Shown one piece after another: positions 3,721 to 59,331 of a DNA stretch of 64,000 bases. Every line of letters begins with the position of its first letter. The first letter of the stretch is position 1. Position numbers and translations under genes: made by a program. Origin of the DNA: Candidatus Dojkabacteria bacterium (GTDB lineage: Bacteria > Patescibacteriota > Dojkabacteria > B142 > OLB20); NCBI GenBank assembly GCA_030583785.1, contig CP129475.1, forward strand, positions 479,559 through 543,558. The letters are read 5' to 3'. The notes under the pieces are model-generated. The model had not been told where the DNA came from and searched no databases. It worked only from the letters and a program-made list of their open reading frames with translations.

Positions 3721-3725
3721 ATTCA

Positions 3726-10632: not shown

Positions 10633-10651
10633 AATGTCAGTTGATAATAAA

Positions 10652-30266: not shown

Positions 30267-30268
30267 GT

Positions 30269-30386: not shown

Positions 30387-30517
30387 TCCGATACTATAAC
30401 TAGCAGCGGATGTCTGTTGACAGACATTTTCTGAATAATTGATCACTGAACTTCATTCATCCGTGGAGGCAAATGTTTTGGGCGTAAATGTATTTTTGTT
30501 AAAACCATTCACACAAT

Positions 30518-33603
<3,086 letters not shown>

Positions 33604-33632
33604 TCTACTCGTTCTTAACGAACATTAATTAC

Positions 33633-33702
33633 CACAAAAAACAAAAAAACCTCCACGAACGAATATCGTTCGTGATCAATTATTCAGTTATTAAAGAGCA
33701 CA
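33633..33702 (-). promoter_or_regulatory. boxA-like antiterminator element plus terminator-like hairpin immediately upstream of 23S
   Basis: Minus strand reads TGCTCTTTAATAACTGAATAATTGATC (33674-33702; compare rrn boxA TGCTCTTTAACAA). Then a 9-bp hairpin CACGAACGA-TAT-TCGTTCGTG (33654-33674), then GGAGGTTTTTTTGTTTTTTG. Confidence 0.4.
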
Positions 33703-33901
33703 CGATACCGCGAATCTGGTCTTAATTCTTGGTCGAGAAAAAAACCGTTCGACTTAATGTAATCGTGCATCAAAATATATTGGAAATAGTAGAGGTTTGC
33801 CAATGTTGCCGTGCGGCAACTAAATCATGGTAAACATACCAATGTAGGAGATAATATCACAAAAAGAAGAAATAACACAAGCTTTTGCGTAAGAAAAACT
33901 A

Positions 33902-34555
33902 TTAATTATTTATCGACTGCTCTCCGATTTGCCCGCCTAAATGTAGCTTGGGCACTATCCTTTGTTCCAGATGATCATCATTCGAACTAGCTTGATCAAC
34001 AAAGTTTCCGGCTTGCGTAACCGGCTGCTGGGTAACGATCGCATTCAACTCTTCTTCATCGAGAAGCTCTTTACCTGCCTTTTGCTTAATTAGCTCGTAT
34101 ATCCTTGGCAGATATGGTTTAAGGGATTCAATTTCTCGCGTAATTATCCGAAGTGAGTATTCTTCGGCCTCATTCTTTCCTTTAACAAGTTCAAGGTATT
34201 CGGCAAGTTCTCTCTTTTGTTCTTCGCTCATAGATTTCTCAAATTCATCGTAAACGCCACTTACAAAATCTGCCCTAATTGAACCTGCGATCTCAACTAG
34301 TTCTGGATTTTTGATCAACTCCTTAAATTTGGCAAAACGAATATCCCCTTTAACACTATCGGTTGCACCTTCGTTAAAAATCTCTTCAACAAAATCACGA
34401 TCGAGACCTTTTTCGATTAGTGATTCTTCAAGAAAGATTTGCTGCGTTTTCGTAATAAACCATTCGATCTCGACATATCTGGATTCCAGCTCTTCGTCGT
34501 GCATGCCGCTTAGTATTTCTAGAACTTTTTTATCAAAATGTTTAATATTTGTCAT
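33902..34555 (-). CDS. Hypothetical acidic protein (217 aa)
   Basis: ORF only. Highly charged and helical. First gene upstream of 23S on the same strand. Confidence 0.45.
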   Translation of the reverse strand: MTNIKHFDKKVLEILSGMHDEELESRYVEIEWFITKTQQIFLEESLIEKGLDRDFVEEIFNEGATDSVKGDIRFAKFKELIKNPELVEIAGSIRADFVSGVYDEFEKSMSEEQKRELAEYLELVKGKNEAEEYSLRIITREIESLKPYLPRIYELIKQKAGKELLDEEELNAIVTQQPVTQAGNFVDQASSNDDHLEQRIVPKLHLGGQIGEQSINN

Positions 34556-34560
34556 TAATT

Positions 34561-36528
34561 TTAAGCCCCTGCTTGGGCAGGAACGGCAATTCCGCTATCG
34601 GTATAACTAAAAATATTAGCCAGATTAGCCATATTACCGAATCTGGCTTGCAAATGTCGCAATAATTGTGTCTTATTATCTGCTGCAAGATCTGGATAAG
34701 CTCCGTCAATAATAATAGTTTGTAACCCTTCAATAATTTGTTTGTAGCGATTCAAAAGATTTTTATCATCATCTGACCTCTCCTTGGCCATAGTCTCGAT
34801 GATTTTTGCTCTTTCCATTATCAAACGCCTGTATTCAAGTTCATGCTTTCTCATATCGTCGGTTATTCTTCCGTAATTCTCAAGATAATATTTTGATCCG
34901 TAGATTGCAGCAGAGAAACCACCGGCAGCGAGAAGTAGGTTAACTTGTGCCAAGCCTGCAACTCCAGAAACGCCAGCAATCCCAGCACCTGCCCCCGCAG
35001 CAATTAGCACTGGAACCATTACTCTTTGTGTCTTTCTAAGCCGTGCATAAAATTCTTGCCTTTTAGCTTCTAATAGAGCCTTTTCTGTCCCATAGGCACT
35101 ATACTCTTCACGAGCAGCTTGAAATTCTTCTCTGAATTTAACCTTTACATCACTGCCACCTTCTCCTTTGATCGTCATGGTACCTAGTTCAAGCTCAAGT
35201 TTTCGAAGTATTGCCTCTCGAATAGTCGTTGGAAGCCTTTTAAAGGCGGCTGACTGCTCTAGATTAGCCTTCATTGTATCGAAATCCATTGCTCCATCCG
35301 AGTCACCGGCAACTTCTTCTACCTGATCTCTGAAATTGACGATTTGTAAGATCTCTGCCCGTAGAGTTGGATTAATAGAAAGTTTGCCAATAAGATTTCT
35401 GACCTGCTCTGCCGTAAGACTGGTTCTACTGTTTTCAAATTCTCGCTTTATTAGACCGGCAATTGCATCAGCGTGCTTGATCTTGTCTGCTTCAGAAAGA
35501 TTATTGATTGCTTGCACCCGACCAATCAATCCGTCAATACTACTTTCTGTGAGTTGTGCCGTATCGACAGCTTGAATAAGACCTGCCGCTTCTCGATCTG
35601 CTTTTATTGTCCTGATTACTGATTTTTGCTCGTCGGAAATATCTGCATCATCTAACAAAGCATCGAGATCTTGGTCGGTAAGATTGCCCGCTTTTAGACT
35701 TTCTCTAATTGTGGTTTCATACTGCTTAATTGCTTTTCTCTTATCAATCAGTTCTTGTGTTTTGTCAGGTGGTGCCGTGACTTGATCAGGGAGTGTCGTT
35801 GTATCAACTGCATCAGCCCTATCTAGAGCAACATCAGGTGTGGGAGCATCAGCAGGTGTGGAATCAATATCAGGTGTGGGATCATCATCTGCGTCTTCGA
35901 GACTACCTGCAGTACTGGTAGCCACATCTATAGTCAGTTCGTACTCTTTTATCTTTTCAACAATTCCCGACTTAAGTTCTCTGAGCTCCACCAAATTATT
36001 ATTAACTGCTAATATGCTACCAAGTAACTCAGTCAGAGCCTTAGCATCTTCGATGTTTGTAGCATCAACATTCCCTTCATCTATCAGTCTAGCCTGTTGT
36101 ATACGCGAACCAATTTCCGTAAGAATTTTTCGTTTTAGTTCACCATCTTCTATTCCTTGAGTATTCATTGCATAATAAGCAAGCGTATCTGGTCTTAGAC
36201 TTGCAGGGTCAAGAAGGTTCTTGTCGAATAGTTTCTTTAATACTTCGAATTTTCTTGCTTTCTTCTTTTCATCTCTTCTATCTTGGGGGATTGATTGATC
36301 GTTATCGATTTGTGCGTCGATTGAACCTAGATTCAGCTGATTGGATATAACAGGTTTTAATGCCTCGACCTGATCATCGGGGACATTTATCTCTCCACCA
36401 GCGTAAATGCCCACAAGCTGGACATTCGCCTCGTTTACTAATTCTTCTTGTTTATCAGCTTCAGTAACCCCTGTTCGTGTTTCTGTTATTGATTCTAGAG
36501 TTGGTCTTGGAGATGAATCTGCACCCAT
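34561..36528 (-). CDS. Hypothetical 655-aa protein with C-terminal glycine-zipper transmembrane hairpin
   Basis: A ~40-residue Gly/Ala-rich hydrophobic segment ('VMVPVLIAAGAGAGIAGVSGVAGLAQVNLLLAAGGFSAAIYG') inside an otherwise charged, coiled-coil-like protein. Its start codon overlaps the upstream gene's stop codon (TAATG). Confidence 0.5.
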   Translation of the reverse strand: MGADSSPRPTLESITETRTGVTEADKQEELVNEANVQLVGIYAGGEINVPDDQVEALKPVISNQLNLGSIDAQIDNDQSIPQDRRDEKKKARKFEVLKKLFDKNLLDPASLRPDTLAYYAMNTQGIEDGELKRKILTEIGSRIQQARLIDEGNVDATNIEDAKALTELLGSILAVNNNLVELRELKSGIVEKIKEYELTIDVATSTAGSLEDADDDPTPDIDSTPADAPTPDVALDRADAVDTTTLPDQVTAPPDKTQELIDKRKAIKQYETTIRESLKAGNLTDQDLDALLDDADISDEQKSVIRTIKADREAAGLIQAVDTAQLTESSIDGLIGRVQAINNLSEADKIKHADAIAGLIKREFENSRTSLTAEQVRNLIGKLSINPTLRAEILQIVNFRDQVEEVAGDSDGAMDFDTMKANLEQSAAFKRLPTTIREAILRKLELELGTMTIKGEGGSDVKVKFREEFQAAREEYSAYGTEKALLEAKRQEFYARLRKTQRVMVPVLIAAGAGAGIAGVSGVAGLAQVNLLLAAGGFSAAIYGSKYYLENYGRITDDMRKHELEYRRLIMERAKIIETMAKERSDDDKNLLNRYKQIIEGLQTIIIDGAYPDLAADNKTQLLRHLQARFGNMANLANIFSYTDSGIAVPAQAGA

Positions 36529-36797
36529 TAATTCTTTTTATAATTTTCTAAATATTCTTGAGTGATACTTCCTCGTTCTACATCTTTATCAAAATTGAGT
36601 ACCATCTCGATAACCTTCTTATCATCATAGCCTTTTTTGCGCAGGTTTTGAACAAATCTTCGCAAGAAAGAATTGCTCATACGAGGTGCAGTGTAGATTG
36701 CTTTTTCTGCAGGCTTATCTAGATTAAGAGACGAAGTAGCTCCTTCTGCCATTGCCTTCAATATTTCTTCGGGTGACTGTGATTGTTGCATATTCAT
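36528..36797 (-). CDS. Hypothetical small protein (89 aa), translationally coupled to downstream gene
   Basis: ORF only. Its stop overlaps the next gene's start by 1 nt. Confidence 0.4.
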   Translation of the reverse strand: MNMQQSQSPEEILKAMAEGATSSLNLDKPAEKAIYTAPRMSNSFLRRFVQNLRKKGYDDKKVIEMVLNFDKDVERGSITQEYLENYKKN

Positions 36798-36826
36798 TTC
36801 TTAAGCTAATTTATTATACAGAAATA

Positions 36827-39800
36827 TTATTGTCTTGGAACATTCCTAAGTCTGGCTATACTAAGCGCAATTTCGTTAGCTTGGTCCGCATTGTACCCTT
36901 TTGTTGCGAGTAGAGCACGAACATTAGCATCGTTGACTGCGCCGGCCTGAGTAAGAGACCGCTCAAGTGCAGTCAGCGAAGCATTGTCACTTATCAGTGT
37001 TTGATACTCAACGCGTTCATAGGTCTTAAATCCAGGGAACCTACTTAATAAATTGCGTTCTTCTTGCAAGCGAAGATATGCAGCCTCAAGAGTATTCATA
37101 TAATCGAAAGTTCTTTTACCTGTCAGCTCAGTCACAATCTGCTGCCAAGTCTGGTTAGTTAAATCTGCCGGCAATGTTTCTGCAAGTTCTCTAATTGAAC
37201 CACTTGTGCTATTTCGTAATATTACAGCAACGGAATATTCTGCCTGAACCTGTTCATAATTGAGAAGTTTTATTAGTTGACCTTTTATACCTAGATCTAA
37301 GCGAGTTAACTGTACTTCTCTCATAAACAATTCAATCGCATTCTCTTTCGACACGACACCTTTAGATACAATTCTATCGATATAATCCCCTAAAAATTCT
37401 GAGTATCTAATCTGCTTGTAAGCATCTCCGTCGATAGTTTGGACAAGTCTTGCAAAGAAAGAAATATCGAAAGGATGATCAGCAGCTGATGGGAACTTAA
37501 GACTATTCGTGAAAATAATATTTAGAATTGGAAGATCTTCATCTTCGACCCCTCGTCTAGCTAGAACTTCTTCTAATACCGCTTCTGGCTTAATTCGACT
37601 TGTTTCAGTATGCCTATCTTCTGCCATCGAAAACGCCTCTTGATGTAAAATCAGAATCTCGGCTGCAACATCCATCAAATCTCCGAAATCAAGCCTATGC
37701 TCAAGTAGCTCGTCCCTGTCTTGAATGCTTTTTTCTGTAATCTTAGCACCTAGCAATGAAGCATATGCTGTTCGGGTTGTATCATTAATGACCTTTGATT
37801 CATAATCTGCTCGTGTATAGTTTTTCGGTCTCTCGGATCTGCCAGTATGTTGCACTTTGATTCCTTTGGATCGCATTAATGCACGGATTTTATCTGGCGA
37901 AGAAAAGTATGAAAGCTGTGAATCATTTCCGACCTCTACAGAAGATTCAATTCTCCTAAGTGCCTCGTTGAATAGCCTCTCTTGGAAACTATCGTAGAGA
38001 GATTCGTAGAAATATTGATTCTCTTCATTCATCAGATTCTGATCCTCCGCTTGTTCGATAGCTTGCAGTATATATCGGTACTCTCTAATTGATTCGACCC
38101 TCTGATCTAGGGCTGGAGCTGCTGTTTCGGGCTGTGCCCAAAAACGGAATGACCTTCTTCTTGTTGGTTGAGTAGTTCCAGCAGTTTGTCTAGCAAACTC
38201 TGCTCTAGCCTTAGCTCTAGCAATCTTTTGCAGGTCAGAGTATATCTGCCGAGTCTCGTTTCTTAGTTTTGCGTTCTGTTCATCTTGAGGAAAGCGAACG
38301 ATTTGCTCTTGCAGAGCCCTCCGTCTAAGTTCAATGTTGTGCGGGCTAATCACCATTAAAATACTTCTATTTGAGTGGACCTCTTGGGTGAGTATTCTAG
38401 CGAGTACACGCATTTCTGAAAAACCCAAGCCATACCTAAACGCATAATCACGGATATAATTACCCAGATCAGGTTTGAGTTTACTTTCTCTTGCTTGAAG
38501 TTTTGCACTTTCAAACTGTTCTGCGATTTCATCGGCAAGGTAAAGGAGCTCGGGGTAACCGATAGTCTGATCGTTACTTCTTAGACCAAGATATGCTTGG
38601 TTTATTCTATAAGCATAAGAATTCTGGTTATTAACTTCTTTTCGATGTTCATCTAGAAAATCATCTACCGTCGCTTTTAGATTTGCATATCTTTTCAGAT
38701 AATGCACAGATCCTACAACCCGCTCATTTAAGAAGCCAGCACCAGCATGCCTAAGCTCTTGTATGCTAAATAAATCGTCCGGATCCTCTGGTCTTAGACC
38801 GAATGTCAACATATCTTGCTTAAGCCTTAAGATTTGTTCTTGATCGGCCCCTTGACTAATCAGATAATTGATCCGATCATTAAAAGCTTCTCTTGTAAAT
38901 TCCTGTAAAAGTGCTACTTCCTCATCTACAAGATCACTTCTCTGGCTTTCTGCTCTAATTTCTCTTACGATTTTCTGAAATATTTTCCCTGCCTTATCTT
39001 CGGCTTCGCTAAAACTTAACGGAGAATTTGTGTCAAACTCTGCGTAATTCTTGCTGGTACCAAGTACAACTTTTGTCGTTTTACTTGTGTACAGATTTTT
39101 AAAGTTGATAATGTTTCCACCTGCAGGTAGTTGAAATGAACACTCTAGAATCAAAGCTTCAAGCTCTCTGTCACTAAGAGGTACGAAATATCTTCCTCCT
39201 GCAATTTCTGCTAGAAAGCTTTCGAAAAATTCTCGGTCAACTGGTTTTCCTAAACTTATTGCCTTCTCTTTAGCCAGCTGAAGCTGTTTAGAAAAAATGT
39301 CGCGATATATTCTTTTCTGAAAATATGATTGCTCAACAAGGGTATTTGTTCGTCGTCTAATATCTACTCTGCCTTCTGCAATTTTGTTCCTAGCACCTCT
39401 AGTTTCTTCGCTCTCGTGAGCACTTTGTCCTCTTCTTATGTTAGCTAAAGCCGCCTGAGCTATATTAAATTCATCTTCTGATAAGACTGCTTCTGTGTCT
39501 GTTTGACTGGTTTCTGCTCTTAGATCAGGTGTTGAAGCTTGATTAGAAGACCAGATATTTTGTATCTCTTGCGCCGTTAGATGGTAACCATGCTTTTCTG
39601 GATCAATCTTTTCTGCAATAAGAAATGCATCTAAAACACCGATAGTACGCTCTAGATCAGGTGGCATTCTTTTGCCTTGCTTTAGATAAGCTGATCCCCT
39701 TTCTTGAAGTTGTTTTAATTTAGCGGTAACAGCCATTGCCTCTGCAACTTCTAATGTGTCTCGATTAGGGTTAAAGCCTTCTGTTCCGTACAAATCTGTG

Positions 39801-40621
39801 ATTTCAATGTTTCTCAACTTTATCTCAACTCCATCGCTAATACCTTCTGTTGCCGCTACTGTTAATTGACTAGCAGAATCTTCTCTGCTAATCTTTTCGT
39901 TCAATACCTGCATGGAAACTATTGCCAGATAATCTTCTTGTGAAAACTGGATACTAGAATTTGACCCTTGTGCCAACAACAAGGGCGAGATTTGTTCGGT
40001 TCTATCTATCGTTTGCGTTATAACCTGTCTGAGCAATGCCTCTCTCACTCGAGGAGTTAATGGTTGTTTCTTTGCAATTTTTTCAATCTCGGAATTTACA
40101 GAATCAAGATATACGGTAATTTCAAGTGGTGCCTGATTTGTTCTTAGCCCAGAAAACAAGGCTTGCTTAAAGTTTTTAAGGCTGCTGATTCCAGACTGCA
40201 CAACCCTCTCCGGTCTAGTTGGATTAATTGTTCGTAAGATTTGTGTTTTTGCCTTTTGACGAATTCGGCTACCTTCGAGAATTAAAAGCTGAGGATCAGG
40301 CAGTTCAGCTGTTTCTTGAGAGGGACCAAGCCAGCTATTGCTTTCTTGCTGCGAAACCTTGAATAACAAATTCGTAAGATCGGTATTCAGTTTAGTGGCA
40401 TCTTGGTCACTTAGGCTTCGTTCTTCAGCATTAAGCAATTGCAATGTTTCTACGAACAGATCGTTTGCATCAGAAATATTTACTTCAGGACTTGTCTGAG
40501 TTGACTCGTCATCTGGCCTTAACAAGCTGTTTATTCGAGCAGATAAACTAGCTGCCGAACTTTCCGGAGTAACACTAAATCCTTCATTTATTCTTCTTTT
40601 TGGCAGATCATTCATAGGCAA
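36827..40621 (-). CDS. Giant hypothetical protein (1264 aa), no recognised domain
   Basis: Long uninterrupted ORF on the same strand as flanking genes and rRNA. Rich in E/R/Q/L, predicted helical. No signal peptide and no TM segment. Confidence 0.55.
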   Translation of the reverse strand: MPMNDLPKRRINEGFSVTPESSAASLSARINSLLRPDDESTQTSPEVNISDANDLFVETLQLLNAEERSLSDQDATKLNTDLTNLLFKVSQQESNSWLGPSQETAELPDPQLLILEGSRIRQKAKTQILRTINPTRPERVVQSGISSLKNFKQALFSGLRTNQAPLEITVYLDSVNSEIEKIAKKQPLTPRVREALLRQVITQTIDRTEQISPLLLAQGSNSSIQFSQEDYLAIVSMQVLNEKISREDSASQLTVAATEGISDGVEIKLRNIEITDLYGTEGFNPNRDTLEVAEAMAVTAKLKQLQERGSAYLKQGKRMPPDLERTIGVLDAFLIAEKIDPEKHGYHLTAQEIQNIWSSNQASTPDLRAETSQTDTEAVLSEDEFNIAQAALANIRRGQSAHESEETRGARNKIAEGRVDIRRRTNTLVEQSYFQKRIYRDIFSKQLQLAKEKAISLGKPVDREFFESFLAEIAGGRYFVPLSDRELEALILECSFQLPAGGNIINFKNLYTSKTTKVVLGTSKNYAEFDTNSPLSFSEAEDKAGKIFQKIVREIRAESQRSDLVDEEVALLQEFTREAFNDRINYLISQGADQEQILRLKQDMLTFGLRPEDPDDLFSIQELRHAGAGFLNERVVGSVHYLKRYANLKATVDDFLDEHRKEVNNQNSYAYRINQAYLGLRSNDQTIGYPELLYLADEIAEQFESAKLQARESKLKPDLGNYIRDYAFRYGLGFSEMRVLARILTQEVHSNRSILMVISPHNIELRRRALQEQIVRFPQDEQNAKLRNETRQIYSDLQKIARAKARAEFARQTAGTTQPTRRRSFRFWAQPETAAPALDQRVESIREYRYILQAIEQAEDQNLMNEENQYFYESLYDSFQERLFNEALRRIESSVEVGNDSQLSYFSSPDKIRALMRSKGIKVQHTGRSERPKNYTRADYESKVINDTTRTAYASLLGAKITEKSIQDRDELLEHRLDFGDLMDVAAEILILHQEAFSMAEDRHTETSRIKPEAVLEEVLARRGVEDEDLPILNIIFTNSLKFPSAADHPFDISFFARLVQTIDGDAYKQIRYSEFLGDYIDRIVSKGVVSKENAIELFMREVQLTRLDLGIKGQLIKLLNYEQVQAEYSVAVILRNSTSGSIRELAETLPADLTNQTWQQIVTELTGKRTFDYMNTLEAAYLRLQEERNLLSRFPGFKTYERVEYQTLISDNASLTALERSLTQAGAVNDANVRALLATKGYNADQANEIALSIARLRNVPRQ

Positions 40622-40675
40622 ATTATTGCAAAAACAACGATGAATAGCTAGATGAATAGGATTTTGACAGATTGA

Positions 40676-42331
40676 TTAAACAGCTCTCGAGAAATCTGAA
40701 TATACCGCCAAGAATGACTTTACTGCAGGATTATCTTGATCGTCTGACTTGCCTAATTTAACTTTAGGAATTTGTGAATTATTAGATACAACTATTTCGG
40801 CAAAAGCTCGATGTAGATCAAGCCAAGCATTAAAATTAACACCTTCATTTTTATCTGCAAGGGCCACCGGTACAGAGAAGATCTCGTTTTCTAATTTTAT
40901 TCGGGCCCACCGTCTAAACTTTTCATACCCAGCCTGCATTTTAATTTTTCTAAGAATCTCTGTATACCTCAACATATGCTCAATACTGATGTACCCTTGT
41001 ATAGCTAGTCCATTAACTGTATCGAACGAAGTGAGCAGTAAATCTGGAGACAGTTCCTCATCTTTATCTAAACCGGATAGAAGATAATCTAAAGCCCTAG
41101 AAAAATAATTATCAATTTTGTCTCGATGCGCTGTTATCGTTCCCAGAATTTCGCCGAGGACTTGCATTTGCTCATCCACTGCAGTAATTACCTGAGCTGA
41201 ATGGTCTGAAAGTTCGGAAATATTTTCATTTGCTATTTTATTGTATGCGTCTCGAACTATCCCCTCTTTTTCCTTTCCCTCATCAATAACCGAAGCGATT
41301 CTCTTTACCTTCACCTCTTGATTTTTCACCAACTGTTCTAAAAACGAAATGTTCGATCTGACCGAAGCTGTAGCGACTGAACTGTTTCTGAATAGGTCGT
41401 CAGTTTGGAAGGCCATCATACCTAAGGCACTAAATAACAAGAGGGCATCCTGGTCGGTTTTGGGATCTAACAACCCCTTTTTCTCTAGCTGTGCAATTGC
41501 CCTTTTGATTACGACTATGTTTTCGGAGCTAATATATTTCCCATCGCTAGAGGAACTAATAATAGCTGAGTATGCGGTTACTAAAGCATCAAGTCCCCTC
41601 ACCCTAGTGAAGTCCAATGCAATAATGTCATCAGTTTGCATCGAACCATTTGTGATTGTCGTATGATATGGATCTATTGTTCCAGTAATTATATCTCCTT
41701 GTTCATTAGCAGATAGGATAGTTATATGGGCATGACTCTGATTCCATCTAGGTAAGAATCCGCCTGAAGCCATATACTCCCTAGATACATCTGGTGCATA
41801 CTTTACACCCGACAATAGAAGACGATGTTGATCCAATAATTGTGGATTTAGTTTCTCGGCTAAAGTTTCAAAAACCATAACATACAACTGGTTAAATGCT
41901 CTACAATTTGTATGCTTTCCCCTCTCTGGATAGCCAATACAATCAGATATACTCCCTCTGGTAAAACTATTCATACCTTCTTTGTGCGACCCTGATGAAG
42001 ACCACAGAATGTTATTTGTTAACGCCAGCAAGTCTTCTAAGGTAATTCCAGCTTGCGATTCAGAATTCTCCCAAGAGTGTAATAAGTGGTGATACTGATT
42101 ATTCTGTTCTAGATACGGAACAATAACATTGCTTTGTAGGTATTCGCTCTCACCTTGAAATACTTCTGGTGTAGCTTCTAATGTTAAATCAAAAGGTTCT
42201 CTTTGCTTGTCAAGAAATTCGCGAATTGGTAATGGAATCTCACCTTTTTGCTTAGAGTGCTCTGTAAGAGGGAGAATCTCAACTTGAGATTCATCATTAA
42301 CAGCAATTTCAGGGTTTGGGTCCGTTAGCAT
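40676..42331 (-). CDS. Hypothetical 551-aa protein
   Basis: ORF only. Contains a 'DCIGYPERG...SHAHITIL...GDIITGTIDPYH' region with a Cys...His...Asp order (speculative papain/transglutaminase-like triad). Confidence 0.45.
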   Translation of the reverse strand: MLTDPNPEIAVNDESQVEILPLTEHSKQKGEIPLPIREFLDKQREPFDLTLEATPEVFQGESEYLQSNVIVPYLEQNNQYHHLLHSWENSESQAGITLEDLLALTNNILWSSSGSHKEGMNSFTRGSISDCIGYPERGKHTNCRAFNQLYVMVFETLAEKLNPQLLDQHRLLLSGVKYAPDVSREYMASGGFLPRWNQSHAHITILSANEQGDIITGTIDPYHTTITNGSMQTDDIIALDFTRVRGLDALVTAYSAIISSSSDGKYISSENIVVIKRAIAQLEKKGLLDPKTDQDALLLFSALGMMAFQTDDLFRNSSVATASVRSNISFLEQLVKNQEVKVKRIASVIDEGKEKEGIVRDAYNKIANENISELSDHSAQVITAVDEQMQVLGEILGTITAHRDKIDNYFSRALDYLLSGLDKDEELSPDLLLTSFDTVNGLAIQGYISIEHMLRYTEILRKIKMQAGYEKFRRWARIKLENEIFSVPVALADKNEGVNFNAWLDLHRAFAEIVVSNNSQIPKVKLGKSDDQDNPAVKSFLAVYSDFSRAV

Positions 42332-42403
42332 TTCAATACTCGAATAATATTCAAGCTAACATAATTCAGTAATTGAATCTACTAGTCAGAAGAAGGAGAA
42401 ATT

Positions 42404-42480
42404 TGGTGGAGCTGGTGGGATTCGAACCCACTACCTTCGCATTGCAAATGCGACGTTCTAGCCAAGTGAACTACAGCCCC
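42404..42480 (-). tRNA. tRNA-Ala (anticodon TGC), canonical 16S-23S spacer tRNA
   Basis: The reverse complement GGGGCTGTAGTTCA...TTTGCAA...CCACCAGCTCCACCA has G3:U70, anticodon UGC and encoded CCA. Confidence 0.85.
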
Positions 42481-42564
42481 GATTTGGTGGAGCCCCAGGA
42501 CTTGCACCTGAAAGGAAGCTTTATTGGAGACCAATATTCTTCCAGCCCCATTATTATTCTCAAA
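42481..42564 (-). other. tRNA-like remnant (degenerate 3' half of a tRNA) between tRNA-Ala and tRNA-Ile
   Basis: Begins TGGTGGAGCCCCAGGACTTGCACCTG, which is the reverse complement of CCA + acceptor + T-arm (CAGG-TGCAAGT-CCTG). No matching 5' half, so a full cloverleaf cannot be drawn. Confidence 0.3.
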
Positions 42565-42641
42565 GTGAGCGATCCTGGGCTCGAACCAGGGACCTCGGTC
42601 TTATCAGGACCGCGCTCTAACCAGCTGAGCTAATCGCTCAC
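42565..42641 (-). tRNA. tRNA-Ile (anticodon GAT), canonical 16S-23S spacer tRNA
   Basis: The reverse complement GTGAGCGATTAGCTCAGCTGGTTAGAGCGCGGTCCTGATAAGACCGAGGTCCCTGGTTCGAGCCCAGGATCGCTCAC is near-identical to typical bacterial tRNA-Ile-GAT. Confidence 0.85.
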
Positions 42642-42716
42642 TCTGACGATAATATTGGCATAATGATTATACTTGCATCAATCAAGTTGCGCAAGCGTTA
42701 GTGATGTTTAAACTAA

Positions 42717-42747
42717 GAGGCGCCGTCCAAAGGACGGCGCCTCACGA
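42717..42747 (-). terminator. Strong GC hairpin downstream of the anti-sigma-like gene (terminator or processing stem)
   Basis: GAGGCGCCGTCC-AAA-GGACGGCGCCTC, a perfect 12-bp stem. The downstream sequence on the minus strand is only weakly T-rich. Confidence 0.4.
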
Positions 42748-42761
42748 TTAACCCAACAATC

Positions 42762-44492
42762 TTACAAGCTAACTGTTATCTTATTTGAGTACTTTTCACA
42801 AACTCCTTCTGAGTTATAAGCACACACTCGGACACAATAGTCACCGGATCCATCAAATGCATAGATCGAGAAAGTACTGGAGAAAGTGTGCGATGCTTCT
42901 GTTGATGCACCTGTTGGATATGTAGGATACTCGTCTACTTTTGACCAAACAACCTTGAATCCGTTAGAAGAGCTTCCATTTACTGTCCAGCCAACTTTGG
43001 CTCCGCCTTTGGCAAACAGATCAATAGACGACACACCTGCAGAAGCCTTATTTGGAGCAGTTATTGTTACATTATTACTGTAGCTGTCACAGCTGTTCGT
43101 ACTTGAATTATATCTGCATACTCTAAAGTGGTATGTCTTTCCATCTGTCAAACCTACTTTTGCAGAACTCTTTCCTCCATCAAAATACTTTGGATTGTCT
43201 GCTGGATAGGTTGGGTTTGGATTCAAGGAACGAACAAGCTTAAACCCTTCTGAGGCATTTAATCCTGATACTGTCCAATTAAGTTGAATACCGTCAGCAA
43301 CAGATGAACCGCTCAGCTTGATCCCGACGAAAGGCTTTTGTGTTGGCGCTACTGTTGGTTGAGCCTTGCGAACAACCGTAATTTTCTTCTCGGCATAATT
43401 ACCGGCAGCGTCTTTAGCACCAATCTTGATTATGTTACTTCCGACAACAAGGTCAACCTTTGCGGAGAAAGATCCTTGATTGTTTTCTACCTCGTTACCA
43501 TTAACAAAAACTCTTGCACCAGCTTCTGTACTACCGCTTAGATCAATTGTTGCTGCTTGTGTTTCAAAATTATCTGCAGGGGAATCAATTGCTAAAGCTG
43601 GAGGAGTTATATCTTTAAGAATTCCTAATTGGTTTTCTGACTTAACGATTTTTATATCTTTTTCTCTGTTCCAAAGAGCAAATTCATTCTTTTTGATTTC
43701 TTCAATGTCTAATGCAAATTTTTCTCCTTCTGCACCTTGTTCACCCTTTTTAAAGCTGTAGCCATTACCCTCTTCGACAACAAGTTCTTTACCTTGTTTT
43801 TTATTCATCTTCACTTTACTTTCGTAAACCAGCAATCCTTCTTCGTCAGTAGACTTAGAAACTTGGTAAGCAGTACCTAACGAGAAGTACTCTGCGTCTT
43901 CTGTAGCTAACGAAAAGTCTCGATCAAGTTTGACCACCCTGGCATAAGCTGATCCAGACAATAATTCGACTTTGATGTCTTGCGGATCAAGCGATGCGAA
44001 TTTTATCTCTGTAAGATGATCGATTCTAACCGCAGAGCCGTCGTCGATATTTACAATAGCTCGTGCATCTTCTTGTGAACGGATTGTGTCACCTTCTTCT
44101 ATCTGTTGACCGTTACTTAAGGCGACCCACTCATCATTGACAAAATATTCAATGGTTCCTTCTGCATAAATGACTTCTGCGCCCAATTTAGCTACTACAG
44201 AATCTTTTTGCTCAACTGTAGCTTGGCGACCTAACAACACAACTGCTCCGACTACTGCTAATACAGTTAGTGAAGCTGTAAGACCAATGACGGCCTTATT
44301 CCTAAAGATGGCGAATACTTTCGACATTCTGTTTTGGGGAGTTTCCCTATTACTAAAATTATTTAAGTACAATGCATTCAGCTCGTGCCTAAGCGATTCA
44401 CGAAAAGCATTGTCAGCAATAGAGTTACTACTCACCTGCGCATGTGAGAAGAAATCTTGCGGAGTTTTACTTTTGCTTTTGTCGCTCTGCAT
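42762..44492 (-). CDS. Putative anti-sigma factor-like membrane protein (N-terminal cytoplasmic segment, single TM, FecR-like and Ig/FN3-like extracytoplasmic repeats)
   Basis: TM helix 'VIGLTASLTVLAVVGAVVLLG' after a ~60-aa N-terminal region. Immediately downstream of, and 17 nt from, an ECF sigma gene. C-terminal repeated beta-rich modules. Confidence 0.5.
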   Translation of the reverse strand: MQSDKSKSKTPQDFFSHAQVSSNSIADNAFRESLRHELNALYLNNFSNRETPQNRMSKVFAIFRNKAVIGLTASLTVLAVVGAVVLLGRQATVEQKDSVVAKLGAEVIYAEGTIEYFVNDEWVALSNGQQIEEGDTIRSQEDARAIVNIDDGSAVRIDHLTEIKFASLDPQDIKVELLSGSAYARVVKLDRDFSLATEDAEYFSLGTAYQVSKSTDEEGLLVYESKVKMNKKQGKELVVEEGNGYSFKKGEQGAEGEKFALDIEEIKKNEFALWNREKDIKIVKSENQLGILKDITPPALAIDSPADNFETQAATIDLSGSTEAGARVFVNGNEVENNQGSFSAKVDLVVGSNIIKIGAKDAAGNYAEKKITVVRKAQPTVAPTQKPFVGIKLSGSSVADGIQLNWTVSGLNASEGFKLVRSLNPNPTYPADNPKYFDGGKSSAKVGLTDGKTYHFRVCRYNSSTNSCDSYSNNVTITAPNKASAGVSSIDLFAKGGAKVGWTVNGSSSNGFKVVWSKVDEYPTYPTGASTEASHTFSSTFSIYAFDGSGDYCVRVCAYNSEGVCEKYSNKITVSL

Positions 44493-44508
44493 CGTACCTA
44501 ATAATTCG

Positions 44509-45075
44509 TTAATCTAATATAAAAGTTTCAGTATCCGGGAAATGCTTCTGAAACTGCACTTTAAACGACTGAAGCGCCCTATGCGCTAGGACTTTAACAT
44601 TATCTGTGCGAATCTTCATAATCTTAGCTATTTCGTCGTTTGATAAATCTGAATAGAACTTATATGTTATGACTTCTTGGTAGCGAGAATTCAACTTAGA
44701 AAGAACAAATGCTACCTGAACCTGCAATTCTTCTTGGATAGCATCTGATTCAACGGAAAGTGATTCATCTGCAACGCTAGAGAAATCGTTCATAGAATCG
44801 TATTTACCTCTGCGGTAGTAGTCAATGACTTTGTTATGTGCAACTCTGTATAACCAAGAACCGAATCTGTAACCTTTTGTTGTATCAAAATCTGCAAGCT
44901 TTTCGACCGCAGACATAAATACCTGACTTGTAATGTCCTCTGCTACTTCTCTTTGTGGGAGTCTGGCCGAGCAATACCTAAAGATTCCGTCGAAATACAT
45001 ATCATACAACTTGTTGAAAGCTTGCAAATTGCTTTTGGCTTCTTCGATTAGTTTTAATTCTTCTGCAAGTTCCAA
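44509..45075 (-). CDS. ECF-type RNA polymerase sigma-70 family factor
   Basis: Region 2 ('FGSWLYRVAHNKVIDYYRR') and region 4 HTH ('LSNDEIAKIMKIRTDNVKVLAHRALQ'). Confidence 0.8.
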   Translation of the reverse strand: MELAEELKLIEEAKSNLQAFNKLYDMYFDGIFRYCSARLPQREVAEDITSQVFMSAVEKLADFDTTKGYRFGSWLYRVAHNKVIDYYRRGKYDSMNDFSSVADESLSVESDAIQEELQVQVAFVLSKLNSRYQEVITYKFYSDLSNDEIAKIMKIRTDNVKVLAHRALQSFKVQFQKHFPDTETFILD

Positions 45076-45149
45076 GTATTTAGTATCAACTAAAAAATTA
45101 TACTAGAGCAGATTTTAGCTAACCAGTATTATATCTGGAATTCTCAATA

Positions 45150-45181
45150 TAAAAAAAATACCACCTAGTTTAGGTGGTATT
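45150..45181 (-). terminator. Rho-independent terminator ~150 nt downstream of the 16S 3' end
   Basis: ATACCACCTA-GTT-TAGGTGGTAT perfect 10-bp stem followed on the minus strand by TTTTTTTT. Confidence 0.6.
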
Positions 45182-45328
45182 AATTGACAACAAAAAAGGT
45201 GACAGGCGTTCAACGCCAAGGTTAAAGGTTTTTGTTTACCTGAAGCATTCCAGCATCAGGAAGGGGTGGTCCAAAACGATAACTTTGCATTTTTACAACC
45301 CCATATGCAAAGTACCTTTTACTCCTTA

Positions 45329-46835
<1,507 letters not shown>

Positions 46836-47110
46836 AACACTTTATGGCCGTGTTTTCAGCCAGCTTTGTATGTAAACACACAAAGACTTTAATCATCGTC
46901 TTAAATGTGCAAGCACATTTAAGCCGGAATTATCTGTAAAGATTGACGTGAACATTTAATATACCCAATAAAGGGTACATTCCTGTCACCTTTTCTGTTG
47001 TCAAGGAGCTTGACTTACTAATTCAATGAGTGAAAAGTAGTATCAAAGCACTCTGATTAGAGTGTATAGCGATTTTACCAGACCAAGCGGTAAATAGTCA
47101 AAGGTTTTTA

Positions 47111-47935: not shown

Positions 47936-49690
47936 TTAAAGCCCTGCCAAGGTGCCTAGTTCTAAGGTGGTTGTAACTTCTTTAGAAGATTTATCCTTAC
48001 GGTCAAATACTTTTAAGCGCGGAAATCTTAAAGAATAACCACCTGATTCACCTCCGTGGAGTTTGCTTTTTGATACAGAATCGGCCTCCACGACAGTTAT
48101 TACCTCTGGGCTAACAAGAACATCGGGCATCAAATTTTTATCAATAGCTACATTTACAGGAATAGTTTGAACAACAATTTGATCTAATCGTTTTTTTATC
48201 GCCAGAAAATCTGTATCGGTGAATCCTGTTCCTAGCTTACTGACACTAACAAATTTATCTGAATCTGGATCATAAACCCCTATTAACAAGGCGCCTATTC
48301 CAAACTTCGCTCTGCTCCCTTTGCCAAAATAATACCCTAAGACTACTGTATCAATAGTGTCCGAGATACCTGCCGAAGCTGATGCCTTAAGCTTGATCCA
48401 GTCGAAATTTCTTGTACCGGGATCATAAAGGGAATCTTTATTCTTACAGATAACTCCTTCTAGTTTTTGTTCCACATATTTTGAGTATATTTCTTCGGCT
48501 TGATTCGCAGATTCCACAGAATTTGACTCTGCCATAACAAGAACTTCTTGTGCAGAAGATTGCAGAATCTTTTCGAGCAGAGAAAGCCTTTCCGTCAAAG
48601 GAGTATCAAGCTTACTTTCGCCGTTCAGCATTAAAATATCGAAACAGTGAGCACGAACTGGAATCTCTGAAGCAATTTTTGAGACATCGTGCTTTCTTTT
48701 GCGACGCATTGTTTCTTGAAATGGCAACATTTCTCCACTTGCAGGATCGTATGCAATAGCTTCGCTATCGATAATTATGGATTCTACATTCAGGGCATTT
48801 AAAGCAGCAGTAATGTCTGGAAACATATCGGTTAATGATTCTAGTTTTCTGCTAAATATCCAAGTTTGAGATTGAGTCTTATCTTCAAATAGTGTTTCTT
48901 GTTCTGGTTTAGACTTATTAGAAGCATTTCTGGAGAAATGCAGCTGCGCCCTTAAACCATCAAATTTAGGTTGAATAATATGTGGCCCAAGCCTTGCAAA
49001 AATTTCAGCTGTTCCTTTCTCTCTTTCGACCAGTTTAACTGCAACAGGAATACCTGCAACGGGTTTTAATTCCTGCAGACTTGTAATCCCTTTGGCAAAG
49101 AGAACTTCACCTACATAACCTAGATCTGCAATCACACCGAAAGCTCTTTCTAAAATTGGTCGCAGAGATTTGTCTTGGTTAATGGCGACCGAGAATGAAT
49201 CTAAAATCGACTTGTCGCTAAGTCCAAGTCTCATCTTGCCAATAATAATTCTGGCTACATACTTGGCTTCAAGACTACCTAGTTTTGCAAAAAGATCGAG
49301 CAAAAGGTTTCTCTTTTTTTCTTGAGATCTGTTTCCACTAATCCCTGTTAAGTTGAAAAGGTTCTCGAAAACTTGATTGATTGTTAGATTTGCTGGTTTG
49401 TTATCTGCGCAGACCAAAGCAGCAACCATACCTAAATCACCCATCTGTTTGTAATAGTCTTCTGCATTCGAATTAACTGAAACCATAACCTTAAGAACGG
49501 ACTTAACAGATAATTGGAATTCGCTAGTCGAGAACAGAGGTGCGACCCTGCCCTGCATTAGGTAGATAGTATTAGCAATTTCGTTTGGGCTAAGCAATCT
49601 TAAGAAATCAGCCAGTGAGGAAATCATTTCGTTTCTAGCAGAGGTTTTTTCTAGGCTGTCTAAAGCCTTACAAAGTTCATGAAAATTCAT
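47936..49690 (-). CDS. ATP-dependent DNA ligase
   Basis: Adenylation motif I 'IQPKFDGLRAQ' (KxDGxR). The overall size and OB-fold region match archaeal/eukaryotic-type ATP-dependent ligases. Confidence 0.85.
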   Translation of the reverse strand: MNFHELCKALDSLEKTSARNEMISSLADFLRLLSPNEIANTIYLMQGRVAPLFSTSEFQLSVKSVLKVMVSVNSNAEDYYKQMGDLGMVAALVCADNKPANLTINQVFENLFNLTGISGNRSQEKKRNLLLDLFAKLGSLEAKYVARIIIGKMRLGLSDKSILDSFSVAINQDKSLRPILERAFGVIADLGYVGEVLFAKGITSLQELKPVAGIPVAVKLVEREKGTAEIFARLGPHIIQPKFDGLRAQLHFSRNASNKSKPEQETLFEDKTQSQTWIFSRKLESLTDMFPDITAALNALNVESIIIDSEAIAYDPASGEMLPFQETMRRKRKHDVSKIASEIPVRAHCFDILMLNGESKLDTPLTERLSLLEKILQSSAQEVLVMAESNSVESANQAEEIYSKYVEQKLEGVICKNKDSLYDPGTRNFDWIKLKASASAGISDTIDTVVLGYYFGKGSRAKFGIGALLIGVYDPDSDKFVSVSKLGTGFTDTDFLAIKKRLDQIVVQTIPVNVAIDKNLMPDVLVSPEVITVVEADSVSKSKLHGGESGGYSLRFPRLKVFDRKDKSSKEVTTTLELGTLAGL

Positions 49691-53825: not shown

Positions 53826-56153
53826 TTAAGCTTTCTTTTTCTTTTCGGACTCAAACAGACTATTAAATTCTTCGGAGTCGATTACTTCTTTTTCGAGAAG
53901 GACTTCAACTAGCTTGTCCAGAACCTTACGATTGTTTTTAAGCAGAGTTTCTGCCTTTTCGTAGCACTTATTGATAATTTCCCGAACTTCTTCGTCGATG
54001 AATCTGGCGGTTTCTTCGGAGTAGTCTCGTTGTTCTCCGTAGCCGTAACCTAGATATTGCAATTCATTTTCTTCTCCGTATTTAACAAGACCAAGTTTTT
54101 TACTCATCCCAAAACTTTTAACCATTCGTCTGGCAATTGATGTGGCCTTTTCGATATCGTTTGATGCTCCGCTGGTAACATCTCCGTATATAAGTGATTC
54201 AGCTGCATAGCCTGCAACAAGAGAAGTAATCTTGGAAAGCATTTTTGTTTTACTCATAGATACCTCATCTGCTTCAGGAAGTGGCATAGTGTAGCCTAGA
54301 GCCATGCCCCGAGATACAATTGTGACTCTGTGTACCGGGTCGTGTTCTGGAGTAAGCTTCATAACCAAAGCGTGACCTGCCTCGTGATAGGCAGTCTTTT
54401 TTAGCTCGTCTTCGCTTCGCTTTCGTTTTTTAGCTGGTCCAACCTGAACCTTGTTTGCTGCTTCTTCGAGATCTTCGAAATTGATAATTTCCCGATTATC
54501 CTTGGCAACAATAATTGCAGCCTCGTTTAGAAGGTTTTCTATGTCAGCTCCCGAAAAACCAACTGTTCTTCTTGCAAGCCTGTCCATGTCTACATCTGGA
54601 TTGATTGGTTTATTTGCAGCATGGATTGCAATTATTTGTTTTCTACCTTCAAGATCAGGTAGATCAAGAACAACCCTTCTGTCAAAGCGCCCTGGCCTAA
54701 GAATTGCAGGATCAAGAACATCTGGTCTATTTGTGGCGGCTATAACAATAAGATTTGTGTTCTTTTCGAAACCGTCCATTTCAACAAGAATCTGATTAAG
54801 AGTCTGCTCTGTAGTGCTGGACTGAACAGTTGTGCCTCTTTTACGAGCTACAGCATCGATTTCGTCGATAAAGATGATTGATGGAGCGGCCTTTTTTGCT
54901 TTTTCAAACAAGTCCCTAACTCTAGATGCTCCTGCTCCTACGAGCATTTCTTCAAATTCTGAACCAGAAGTATGAAAGAACGGAACACCTGCTTCGCCGG
55001 CAATTGCACGAGCTAACATTGTTTTTCCGGTTCCAGGTGCGCCAACCATAAGTAAACCTTTTGGTATTCTGGCTCCAAGCTTTAAGAATCTTTTAGGATC
55101 TTTTAGAAAGAGAACAACTTCTCTAAGCTCCTCTTTTGCCTCATCAACTCCAGCAACATCTTTAAATGAGATATCTGGCTTTCTTCCAAAGATCATGCGT
55201 GCCTTGCTTTGTCCAAATTTCATAAGTGAGTTTCCAGATCCTTGAACGCCTCTAAACATAAAGAAAACAAGACCTCCAAGCCCCAGAAGCATAACCAGAA
55301 GTATTATGTCTCCCCAAGGGATTTTGGTAATAACCGCAGCAGTGTAGCGGACATTTTCTGCATCAAGGTTAACATCTTCTCCCTTTAGGAATTCGCTGAA
55401 ACTCGTTGTATTTGCAACCCTCCAATTAATGAACTCTTGCTTTACGAATTCTGGCTTTAAGACACCAAGCGCATAGTTATTGATTGCCCAAATGCTGTCA
55501 AATGCTTCTTGGTTTTGTAAAGCGACAAAATCAGAATTTGCTCTGTAACCTGCAGCCTCTCTTAAGAAATATGTCGGCACATTTAAATCGGATAGGTTAA
55601 TCTTTTCGCGTTCAAGTAGAGCCATAAATTCTGCTTCTCCGAAGCCTTCAATGACTGCGTCATTTGTATCCGATGCTCCTTGAGCAATAATCTCTTCTGT
55701 TCCAAGATAGATTGCTGAATATCTGGTAATTGAAGATGGATTTGTAATCGCCCTTATGACTTCTGTAATACTAAGTGGTTTTATCTGTTGAAAAAGCTCA
55801 TCTAGAGACAGCTTAGTTACTGATTCTTGTGTTGTTGATTTAAGTTGCGCGAAAAACTCTTCTGCTGCTTGATCTTCTGCTTCTGAGATTGGTGTTCCGA
55901 GTAACAGTTTAGTTTTCGCTATTGCTCTGCCGTCGTCTCGAATTTGAATTTCGTAATACCTGTTTGCCTTAATCCCCTGAACAAAATTACTGACACTAAC
56001 TTCTGACCCAGGCTGTGGAGCAAGAGAATTAAAGACAAAGGAGATACCGAGCAGAACCAACGAAAATATTAATAGCGTATTGAAATTCAATCCTAATAAT
56101 CCTCTTCGAGGTGCCTTGGCTCTGGGCATGCGTTTGATATTTTCTTGAGACAT
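53826..56153 (-). CDS. ftsH: ATP-dependent zinc metalloprotease FtsH
   Basis: Two N-terminal TM helices, AAA Walker A 'GAPGTGKT', the SRH region, and the 'HEAGHALV' zinc-binding motif. Confidence 0.95.
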
Positions 56154-56180: not shown

Positions 56181-56254
56181 TGACGGGAACTGGGATCGAA
56201 CCAGTGACCTGGGGCTTATGAGTCCCCCGCTCTAACCAACTGAGCTATCCCGCC
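56181..56254 (-). tRNA. tRNA-Met (anticodon CAT; elongator-type, tRNA-Ile2/lysidine not excluded)
   Basis: The reverse complement GGCGGGATAGCTCAGTTGGTTAGAGC...CTCATAA...GGTTCGATCC has a G1-C72 pair, so it is not an initiator. Confidence 0.8.
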
Positions 56255-57573: not shown

Positions 57574-57648
57574 TGGTTGCGGGGAGAGGATTCGAACCTC
57601 TGACCTTCAGGTTATGAGCCTGACGAGCTGCCACTGCTCCACCCCGCG
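57574..57648 (-). tRNA. Initiator tRNA-fMet (anticodon CAT)
   Basis: The reverse complement CGCGGGGTGGAGCAG...CTCATAA...GGTTCGAATCC...CCCCGCAACCA has a C1·A72 mismatch and is near-identical to the E. coli tRNA-fMet sequence I recall. Confidence 0.85.
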
Positions 57649-58218: not shown

Positions 58219-59094
58219 ATGACTTTACAAGAAAGCCAACAACAATTTATAGAGTCTCTACGGGCAAAAAAAAGGTCTGAATCCACCATTGTAGCTTATA
58301 GCAAAGACATAGATCAACTGCTTGTGTTCATGAGTAAACAAGGCCTGCCAAAAGAATGTAAAGAGTTAACAACAGAGGTATTAACCAAATATGTAGATGA
58401 ACTCAAGAAGGAAGGTAGCTATACCCTGAAAACTATCTCTCGGAAAATTAACAGTCTCAAAACCTTTTCCAAGTTTTTATTAGGCGAAAACCTTATAGTA
58501 GTAGATGTAGCAGAACCAATAGCGCATCCCGAATATACTAGTCAGCCACAGAGAATCCTCTCGCCGCTTGAATATCGTGCGCTTAGAGATTGCGCCAGAA
58601 CAAACTTGAGGTTATTCACTATGGTAGAACTCTTGCTTCAGACCGGTATTCGCATCGGAGAATTATCTCGACTAAAAAAATCCGATCTAAACCTAGAAAA
58701 AGGTGAGCTTAGAATTGAGGCTTTTTCAAGTAACAGGGAAAGGATAGTAGAACTTAACAGTCTGGCAATTGAGGCCTTACGGACATTTACAGATACAGAC
58801 AACACATTCAAAAACCAAAAGGATGATTACTTATTTAAAACAAAAACCGGCAGACCAGTTTTGATCAGGAACATTCGCACTGCCATTAATCGAGCATTCA
58901 AAAAAGCAGGCATTAAGAATGCAACTGTCAACGACATTCGCAACACATTCATTGTTTATCAACTTGAACAAGGGATTAGAACAGATAGACTTGCTGAACT
59001 TGTCGGCCATCAGAAACCATCAACAACAGAAAAGTATCTTGACTTGGTCGCCCAAAGACCAACAAAGACTCACACAAAAATTGATCCACTCTAG
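58219..59094 (+). CDS. Tyrosine site-specific recombinase (XerC/XerD / phage-integrase family)
   Basis: N-terminal SAM-like core-binding domain ('ESTIVAYSKDIDQLL'). C-terminal catalytic region with 'LVGHQKPSTTEKYLDL' (HxxR...Y). Confidence 0.8.
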   Translation: MTLQESQQQFIESLRAKKRSESTIVAYSKDIDQLLVFMSKQGLPKECKELTTEVLTKYVDELKKEGSYTLKTISRKINSLKTFSKFLLGENLIVVDVAEPIAHPEYTSQPQRILSPLEYRALRDCARTNLRLFTMVELLLQTGIRIGELSRLKKSDLNLEKGELRIEAFSSNRERIVELNSLAIEALRTFTDTDNTFKNQKDDYLFKTKTGRPVLIRNIRTAINRAFKKAGIKNATVNDIRNTFIVYQLEQGIRTDRLAELVGHQKPSTTEKYLDLVAQRPTKTHTKIDPL

Positions 59095-59219
59095 TATTTC
59101 CAATTAACGCTTGCTAGTGATAGAATTGACTCCATAGTGGGCCAGCCCACATGCCATGTTTGTGGCATGATGAGCGGTTAGGTTATAACTAACCAGAGCA
59201 AAACGCCTTTGATAAAGGC

Positions 59220-59293
59220 GGGCTAGTAGCTCAGGAGGTCAGAGCACCGTTCTTATAAAGCGGGGGTCGGTGGTTCGAGTCCACCCTGGCCCA
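59220..59293 (+). tRNA. tRNA-Ile (anticodon TAT/UAU)
   Basis: Hand-folded cloverleaf: acceptor GGGCTAG/CTGGCCC, D-arm GCTC-AGGAGGTCA-GAGC, anticodon stem CCGTT/AGCGG with loop CTTATAA (anticodon nt 59254-59256), T-arm GGTGG-TTCGAGT-CCACC, discriminator A. No CCA. Confidence 0.75.
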
Positions 59294-59331
59294 CTTAAAA
59301 ACCCAAAAGATATTGCTTCTGTCATAGATAA

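Follow-up and report, generated by a model that had tools for sequence, protein, structure and literature searches.

No wobble problem of the genetic code is harder than telling AUA (Ile) apart from AUG (Met), and bacteria are generally described as using lysidine for this purpose. The locus described here, from a bacterium of the Candidatus Dojkabacteria (WS6), a class of ultra-small Patescibacteria/CPR, raises the question of whether this lineage reads AUA in a different way, as it appears to carry a tRNA-Ile gene in which the anticodon UAU is directly encoded. The original prediction, made from the 64 kb stretch of DNA analysed here (64,000 nucleotides; referred to as the window), also pointed to a tyrosine recombinase gene beside the tRNA gene and proposed that the pair marks an integration site.

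A genomically encoded UAU tRNA-Ile was thought to be rare in bacteria, and the literature agrees. UAU tRNA-Ile has been recorded in 17 bacterial genomes (PMC8450103) and in 9 species without tilS (PMC3575796), and UAU tRNAs have been called 'rare cases' (bioRxiv 10.64898/2026.02.03.703510). This tRNA, also named Ile3, is known in Mycoplasma, Bifidobacterium and Neorickettsia, and also in Nanoarchaeum and Korarchaeum (PMC3575796, PMC8450103). In the literature, nothing was found that connects CPR/Patescibacteria with lysidine, tilS or UAU tRNA-Ile, and the lineage-wide occurrence described below therefore looks under-described.

The clean cloverleaf and the anticodon loop CTTATAA that had been folded by hand were borne out by ARAGORN and by alignment to the Rfam covariance model. 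ARAGORN detected 8 tRNAs in the window, including a tRNA-Ile(tat) at 59220-59294 on the forward strand, and the match of RF00005 to 59220-59293 (E=5e-12 for the whole window; gathering score 29) falls inside the 64-72 bits of the other tRNAs of the window. The covariance-model alignment spans model positions 1-71 and places UAU in the anticodon loop (CUUAUAA) and not elsewhere. The product is predicted to fold as a standard cloverleaf with stems of 7, 4, 5 and 5 bp, an acceptor stem of GGGCUAG/CUGGCCC and discriminator A73, and has no encoded CCA. It is thus a canonical tRNA with a model-placed UAU anticodon, as in known tRNA-Ile(UAU) ('tRNA-Ile3'). The NCBI MAG GCA_019454465.1 and no fewer than 9 independent SRA assemblies contain an identical tRNA gene adjacent to an identical recombinase gene, and the gene is therefore not an assembly artefact. 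The observation of a real tRNA-Ile(UAU) gene is confirmed. Features of the locus, and of the rRNA operon in the same window, are listed in Table 1.

Table 1. Features of the tRNA-Ile(UAU) locus and of the rRNA operon, with positions numbered from the first base of the window.
Feature	Position	Strand	Remarks	Evidence
23S	30523-33591		rRNA operon, followed by 5S; 3069 nt vs 2925-position model	
Four large ORFs, 217-1264 aa	33902-42331		within rRNA operon; no Pfam match	
tRNA-Ile(GAU) and tRNA-Ala(UGC)	42404-42639		within rRNA operon	
tRNA-Ile(GAU)	42565..42639	-	AUU/AUC decoder, in rRNA spacer; G3-C70, C4-G69, A73	ARAGORN
ECF sigma factor and FecR-domain protein	42762-45075		within rRNA operon	
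16S	45330-46836		rRNA operon	
ftsH	53826..56153	-	anchor of conserved neighbourhood	Pfam AAA and Peptidase_M41, synteny
Elongator tRNA-Met(CAU)	56181..56254	-	directly upstream of ftsH; C3-G70, G4-C69, A31.G39	ARAGORN, Rfam
Initiator tRNA-fMet(CAU)	57574..57648	-		ARAGORN, Rfam, PMC1635315 features
Xer-like tyrosine recombinase	58219..59094	+	291 aa	Pfam Phage_int_SAM_1 and Phage_integrase
Promoter-like site	59097..59126	+	TTTCCA-18-TAGAAT with TG	consensus scan only, weak
Hairpin CGCCTTTGATAAAGGCG	59204..59220	-	7 bp, overlaps first base of tRNA-Ile(UAU)	sequence
tRNA-Ile(UAU)	59220..59293	+		ARAGORN, Rfam RF00005 65.6 bits, 19-homologue covariation

Two putative signals flank the tRNA gene. 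The promoter-like site, ~94 nt upstream, is a possible candidate for the tRNA promoter. The hairpin CGCCTTTGATAAAGGCG is followed by a T-run on the minus strand and resembles a terminator serving the convergent LamG and T4SS-type ATPase genes; as it is located at the 5′ end of the tRNA, such a terminator would sit beyond the tRNA antisense.

The gene order around tRNA-Ile(UAU) was compared in loci anchored on ftsH (L011-L090), 34 from Patescibacteria and 46 from other bacteria. The nearest FtsH loci in species-representative genomes belong to candidate division WS6 / Candidatus Dojkabacteria MAGs, with 71% to ~48% identity. Sixteen Dojkabacteria-type loci, with FtsH identity down to ~48%, carry tRNA-Ile(UAU) in a common order, namely the T4SS-type ATPase, (LamG protein), tRNA-Ile(UAU), the Xer-like recombinase, (144-aa protein), tRNA-fMet, tRNA-Met, ftsH and polA, with the orientation of tRNA-Ile(UAU) differing between subclades. 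The tRNA gene already had this chromosomal neighbourhood before the class Dojkabacteria diversified, and has kept it. No UAU tRNA was found at 12 Dojkabacteria-type ftsH loci, most of which are contigs that end early. In L019, L022, L034 and L037, ~10 kb of upstream sequence is present and contains no UAU tRNA, and the position is therefore not universal. Four further Patescibacteria, a Paceibacterota MAG, a Wolfebacteria MAG, one 'Patescibacteria group' and one 'bacterium' (L066, L074, L078 and L080), have a UAU tRNA 23-174 nt after ftsH that is of a different sequence type from the Dojkabacteria one. Overall, 20/34 Patescibacteria loci have a UAU tRNA no more than 10 kb from ftsH, compared with 0/46 loci from other bacteria (Fisher p=4e-10).

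An alignment of 19 distinct tRNA-Ile(UAU) sequences was used to examine selection. Standard pairing is seen in all 399 stem cells, and both sides have changed (compensatory) in 17 of the 21 pairs, compared with 0/500 shuffles; no slid control comes near the count of 17. Loop positions 32-37 are invariant. Metagenomes were scanned with the anticodon arm of the Dojkabacteria type, in which position 34 could be either C or T, and at least 120 matches were obtained, the first 80 of which represent 56 distinct sequences. U34 is present in 120/120 of the matches listed and C34 in none, indicating that U34 is old and fixed and is neither a recent C-to-T change nor an error. Purifying selection on tRNA-Ile(UAU), a canonical tRNA, is strong.

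Two details of the anticodon arm (59247-59263) were also seen in this alignment. A U30.G40 wobble is kept in 15/19 sequences, and the core GUUCUUAUAAAGC is invariant while the pairs around it covary.

Charging with isoleucine is predicted from features outside the anticodon wobble position. The pairs C4-G69 and U12-A23, together with A73, are said to have been defined by Nureki et al. in 1994 as identity elements for E. coli IleRS. The Ile identity elements other than position 34 (A35, U36, A37, A38, A73, C4-G69 and U12-A23) are all present in the tRNA of the window, and among the 19 homologues C4-G69, U12-A23, A73 and A37 occur in 19/19 and G3-C70 in 18/19. The tRNA-Ile(GAU) sequences have G3-C70 and C4-G69 in 8/8 cases. 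As this acceptor pattern is common to the UAU and GAU tRNAs, tRNA-Ile(UAU) groups with the Ile acceptor. The two Ile tRNAs of this genome have G29-C41, where E. coli tRNA-Ile has C29-G41. tRNA-Ile(UAU) shares ~74% pairwise identity with tRNA-Ile(GAU) and ~70% with tRNA-Met, values that do not discriminate its origin.

The same positions separate the CAU tRNAs, which were classed using the discriminator positions published by Silva et al. 2006 (PMC1635315). C3-G70 is usual in Met and fMet tRNAs, while G3, A3, C70 or T70 point to tRNA-Ile(CAU), in which C4-G69 and C5-G68 are frequent, and A11-U24 with G12-C23 mark initiators (PMC1635315). It had been suggested that the G1-C72 CAT tRNA at 56181-56254 could be elongator Met and not tRNA-Ile2, and this is correct, as it has C3-G70 and G4-C69 in place of the G3-C70 and C4-G69 of the Ile tRNAs. 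The second CAU tRNA has a C1xA72 mismatch, A11-U24, G12-C23 and an encoded CCA. The two CAU tRNAs of the window, which covers 64 kb of a genome of roughly 1.17 Mb, are therefore an initiator and a Met-type tRNA only. Elongator tRNA-Met orthologues were collected from L011-L040, L057 and the metagenome loci. Among distinct sequences, C3-G70 is present in 20/24 elongators and C4-G69 in 0/24, and the initiators have C3-G70 in 17/17, G4-C69 in 17/17 and C4-G69 in 0/17. The Ile acceptor signature is thus missing from 24/24 elongator CAU tRNAs, and an Ile-type CAU tRNA was seen in 0/41 distinct sequences (24 elongator, 17 initiator) from related genome loci, all of them ftsH-neighbourhood sequence. 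Likewise, the 83 CAU tRNAs in the metagenome loci listed include 48 initiators and 35 members of the same elongator family, with C4-G69 in none.

Both Met tRNAs have unusual anticodon stems. That of the initiator is A29 G30 G31 / C39 C40 U41, and 16/17 distinct sequences from this lineage have A29-U41 (the AGG/CCU signature) instead of the three G-C pairs that are usual; a variant of this type also occurs in alpha-proteobacteria and chloroplasts (Silva et al., PMC1635315). In the elongator tRNA-Met beside ftsH, positions 31 and 39 are never paired (24/24 distinct sequences; A.G in the window, A.A or A.C in relatives), leaving an anticodon stem of 4 bp. This 31.39 mismatch may be relevant to AUG/AUA discrimination where a UAU tRNA-Ile is used.

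The suggestion that AUA use in the window genes be checked gave a clear result. ATA is heavily used, accounting for 368 of 18,031 codons (20.4 per 1000) and 25.5% of the Ile codons, and is found in NusG and ribosomal protein genes. When aligned with orthologues of other species, ATA positions correspond to I in 50%, L in 20%, V in 13% and M in below 1.3% of cases, and against 46 FtsH proteins from outside the Patescibacteria to I in 50% and L in 27%, with M not among the six commonest residues. ATG positions correspond to M in about 39-40% of cases in orthologues of other species. The alignment profile of ATA is the same as those of ATT and ATC, showing that AUA codons are used with the meaning isoleucine and need an efficient decoder.

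Searches for TilS were made in the window and in related sequence. None of the window ORFs matched PF01171 (TilS) in Pfam scans, and a tblastn search of the window with E. coli TilS returned nothing. With a jackhmmer profile for which E. coli TilS was the seed, tilS was detected upstream of ftsH in 14/46 loci from outside the Patescibacteria and in 0/34 Patescibacteria loci even at E<=1, the search covering the surroundings of each locus. The two sets of ftsH neighbourhoods are therefore reciprocal, tilS having the distribution just given and the UAU tRNA being present in 0/46 and 20/34, respectively. In the 120 metagenome loci listed (787 kb), tilS was found in none at E<=0.01. When a protein database was searched with an 8-sequence profile of the TilS N-domain, the 120 matches listed consisted almost entirely of TilS from Escherichia or Citrobacter and of unnamed proteins, with one from Holosporaceae. 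The absence of TilS from Dojkabacteria is considered moderately probable.

It is quite likely, on good grounds, that tRNA-Ile(UAU) is a functional, vertically inherited Ile tRNA of the core chromosome and the main, probably the only, AUA decoder. IleRS would charge it with isoleucine, its U34 would pair with A to read AUA, and it would replace the usual pair of tRNA-Ile2(CAU) and TilS (lysidine). By analogy, misreading of AUG would be limited as in Mycoplasma mobile or in the Bacillus subtilis tilS-deletion suppressor. Recognition of UAU by IleRS would need Arg or Lys at the position of E. coli W905, or a type-2 IleRS; neither the window nor any of the compared locus sequences contains an IleRS gene (ileS). 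Modification-poor decoding of AUA would be in character for CPR bacteria because the inosine tRNA-Arg(ACG) is also missing from them, with CGN codons decoded in an unmodified style (PMC8629427).

AUA stands for Met in many mitochondria. A UAU anticodon is by itself no proof of the amino acid that is charged, and the Ile identity assigned here is read from the sequence. Nevertheless, it is scarcely credible that the tRNA is not an Ile tRNA, whether because AUA is reassigned, because another amino acid is charged or because the gene is a pseudogene. Reassignment of AUA, for example to Met, is ruled out by the alignment of ATA positions with Ile, Leu and Val in the manner of ATT and ATC, while ATG aligns with Met at about 40%. 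The Ile-type identity elements common to tRNA-Ile(UAU) and tRNA-Ile(GAU) argue against another amino acid, and the normal Rfam score and fully paired, covarying stems of the cloverleaf rule out a pseudogene or chance fold. More weight has to be given to redundancy, in which tilS and tRNA-Ile2(CAU) are located elsewhere in the genome and the UAU tRNA only supplements lysidine-dependent reading of AUA. The two systems are found together in Lactobacillus casei, Cyanothece and Ferrimonas (PMC3575796), about 98% of annotated bacterial genomes are reported to have tilS (PMC12514573), and the sequence examined here amounts to about 6% of the genome. However, known coexistence is confined to sporadic single species, whereas here the UAU tRNA is fixed in a class and occurs in other Patescibacteria. 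Roughly 1.5 Mb of related sequence, which is locus-biased, being all clustered round the same locus, yielded neither TilS nor an Ile-type CAU tRNA. Genomes of ~1 Mb would not be expected to keep two complete systems for long, and given a UAU decoder fixed class-wide and heavy use of AUA (2% of codons), two parallel systems are judged unlikely, with a chance that is appreciable but well below that of tRNA-Ile(UAU) serving as the principal decoder.

The proposed integration site fared less well. The distance of 125 nt between the recombinase gene and the tRNA gene is right, the recombinase ORF ending at 59094, and a tyrosine recombinase gene adjoining a tRNA gene is a feature shared with the tRNA sites of islands, ICEs and prophages. 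In addition, a T4SS-type ATPase with DUF87 and TraG-D_C domains is located on the other side of the tRNA. It is nonetheless very improbable that a genomic island or ICE is marked by, or includes, the tRNA and has the recombinase as its integrase. The recombinase is located 5′ of the tRNA and not within an element that adjoins the 3′ end. The 21-nt 3′ end of the tRNA is single-copy in the 64 kb at <=3 mismatches, so that no attL/attR repeat derived from it is present, and within the window there are no flanking direct repeats and no repeat family that involves the tRNA. There is no compositional break, as GC is flat at 0.395-0.413 throughout 54-64 kb, and variable presence in relatives was not observed, the order ATPase, tRNA, recombinase, ..., ftsH, polA being kept across Dojkabacteria. 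No relative with an empty site, having the tRNA and tRNA-derived att repeats but lacking the recombinase and ATPase block, was seen among the loci compared. The T4SS genes of Patescibacteria are reported to be chromosomal, vertically inherited and without relaxases (bioRxiv 10.1101/2025.01.22.634366).

The recombinase itself is a conserved chromosomal neighbour with no sign of a role as an island integrase. Orthologues are syntenic across Dojkabacteria, and among the first 80 of the at least 120 metagenome loci the recombinase is found in 42 and the ATPase in 48. The protein matches the NCBIfam XerA, XerC and XerD models over their full length with 129-138 bits, against cut-offs of 220-335. 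The catalytic R, R, H and Y are kept, but box II is NDxRNTF and not HxxRHxF, with Asn for both His in the protein of the window and in every orthologue aligned there. In three distant orthologues, the first catalytic Arg is replaced by Lys or Gln.

Pfam scans of 46 ORFs show that the window is an ordinary chromosomal region. It includes nusG-L11-L1-L10-L7/L12, mreB, leuS, rho, radA, clpC, rpsA, polA and ftsH, as well as a split rRNA operon and an ATP-dependent DNA ligase gene. The rRNA operon (30268-46836) is interrupted by protein genes, and the ligase (47936-49690) is of the archaeal/eukaryotic type. Two tandem nucleoside-diphosphate kinase genes are located at 10033-11275, each of which is matched by the NDK model as two separate pieces, and 3046-7419 contains a cluster of 7TM-transglutaminase-associated, ATP-grasp, Mur-ligase-like and RimK-like genes.

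A wider picture, which is plausible but on balance somewhat doubtful, is that Dojkabacteria, and possibly much of the Patescibacteria/CPR, have no TilS or lysidine and read AUA via an ancient tRNA-Ile(UAU) as the ancestral state. Under it, the U30.G40 wobble and the 31.39 mismatch of tRNA-Met may be co-adapted devices for AUA/AUG fidelity, and the linkage to ftsH may be a trace of the replacement of tilS. If this is true, lysidine-independent decoding of AUA would be ancestral in a major bacterial radiation and not limited to a few sporadic exceptions. If tilS is truly absent, lysidine would play no part in reading AUA across a large share of bacterial diversity, which would fit a CPR pattern of dispensing with wobble modifications, and these lineages would provide natural material on how the ribosome and IleRS cope with U34. 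Marker sets based on TilS, for example the TIGR02432 model, could under-score these genomes, and annotation pipelines should expect tRNA-Ile(UAU) here and not flag it.

Among known AUA decoders, the system of M. mobile is similar in several respects. Both have an encoded tRNA-Ile with UAU, a small AT-leaning genome and AUA as a common Ile codon (PMC3575796, PMC1635315), and the CAU tRNAs seen are initiator and elongator Met only. In M. mobile, loss of tilS and tRNA-Ile2(CAU), an unmodified U34, Arg865 in IleRS and ribosome-dependent AUA/AUG discrimination have been shown experimentally (PMC3575796), whereas the Dojkabacteria system is known from sequence alone. M. mobile is also a single species in a TilS-bearing clade, whereas here the tRNA is class-wide and found in other Patescibacteria. 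Lineages of genus level or wider in which a UAU tRNA replaces the CAU tRNA-Ile2 are known in Bifidobacterium and Neorickettsia (PMC3575796, PMC8450103). Those are documented as having no tilS and a type-2 (eukaryote-type) IleRS, and the likeness to Dojkabacteria seen here concerns the UAU tRNA.

The B. subtilis tilS-deletion suppressor tRNA1-Ile(G34U) is likewise a UAU tRNA with a tRNA-Ile1-like body (Kohrer et al. 2014, PMC3919564), and on the cognate ribosome this tRNA, with U34 unmodified, has strong binding to AUA and weak binding to AUG (PMC3919564). However, the suppressor arose by laboratory mutation of a GAU tRNA, whereas the Dojkabacteria tRNA is the product of a separate, ancient gene beside tRNA-Ile(GAU), to which it is ~74% identical. 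Canonical tRNA-Ile2(CAU) with TilS performs the same AUA-to-Ile task and has C4-G69, often with C5-G68, and G3-C70. In that tRNA C34 needs lysidine, whereas here no modification of C34 would be needed because the anticodon is encoded as UAU, C34 occurring in none of the 120 metagenome copies listed; tilS, upstream of ftsH in 14 of the 46 loci from other bacteria, is missing there in 34/34 Patescibacteria loci. This kind of tRNA is already known, and what looks under-described is a UAU solution that is class-wide in CPR bacteria with high AUA use and that is also found in other Patescibacteria.
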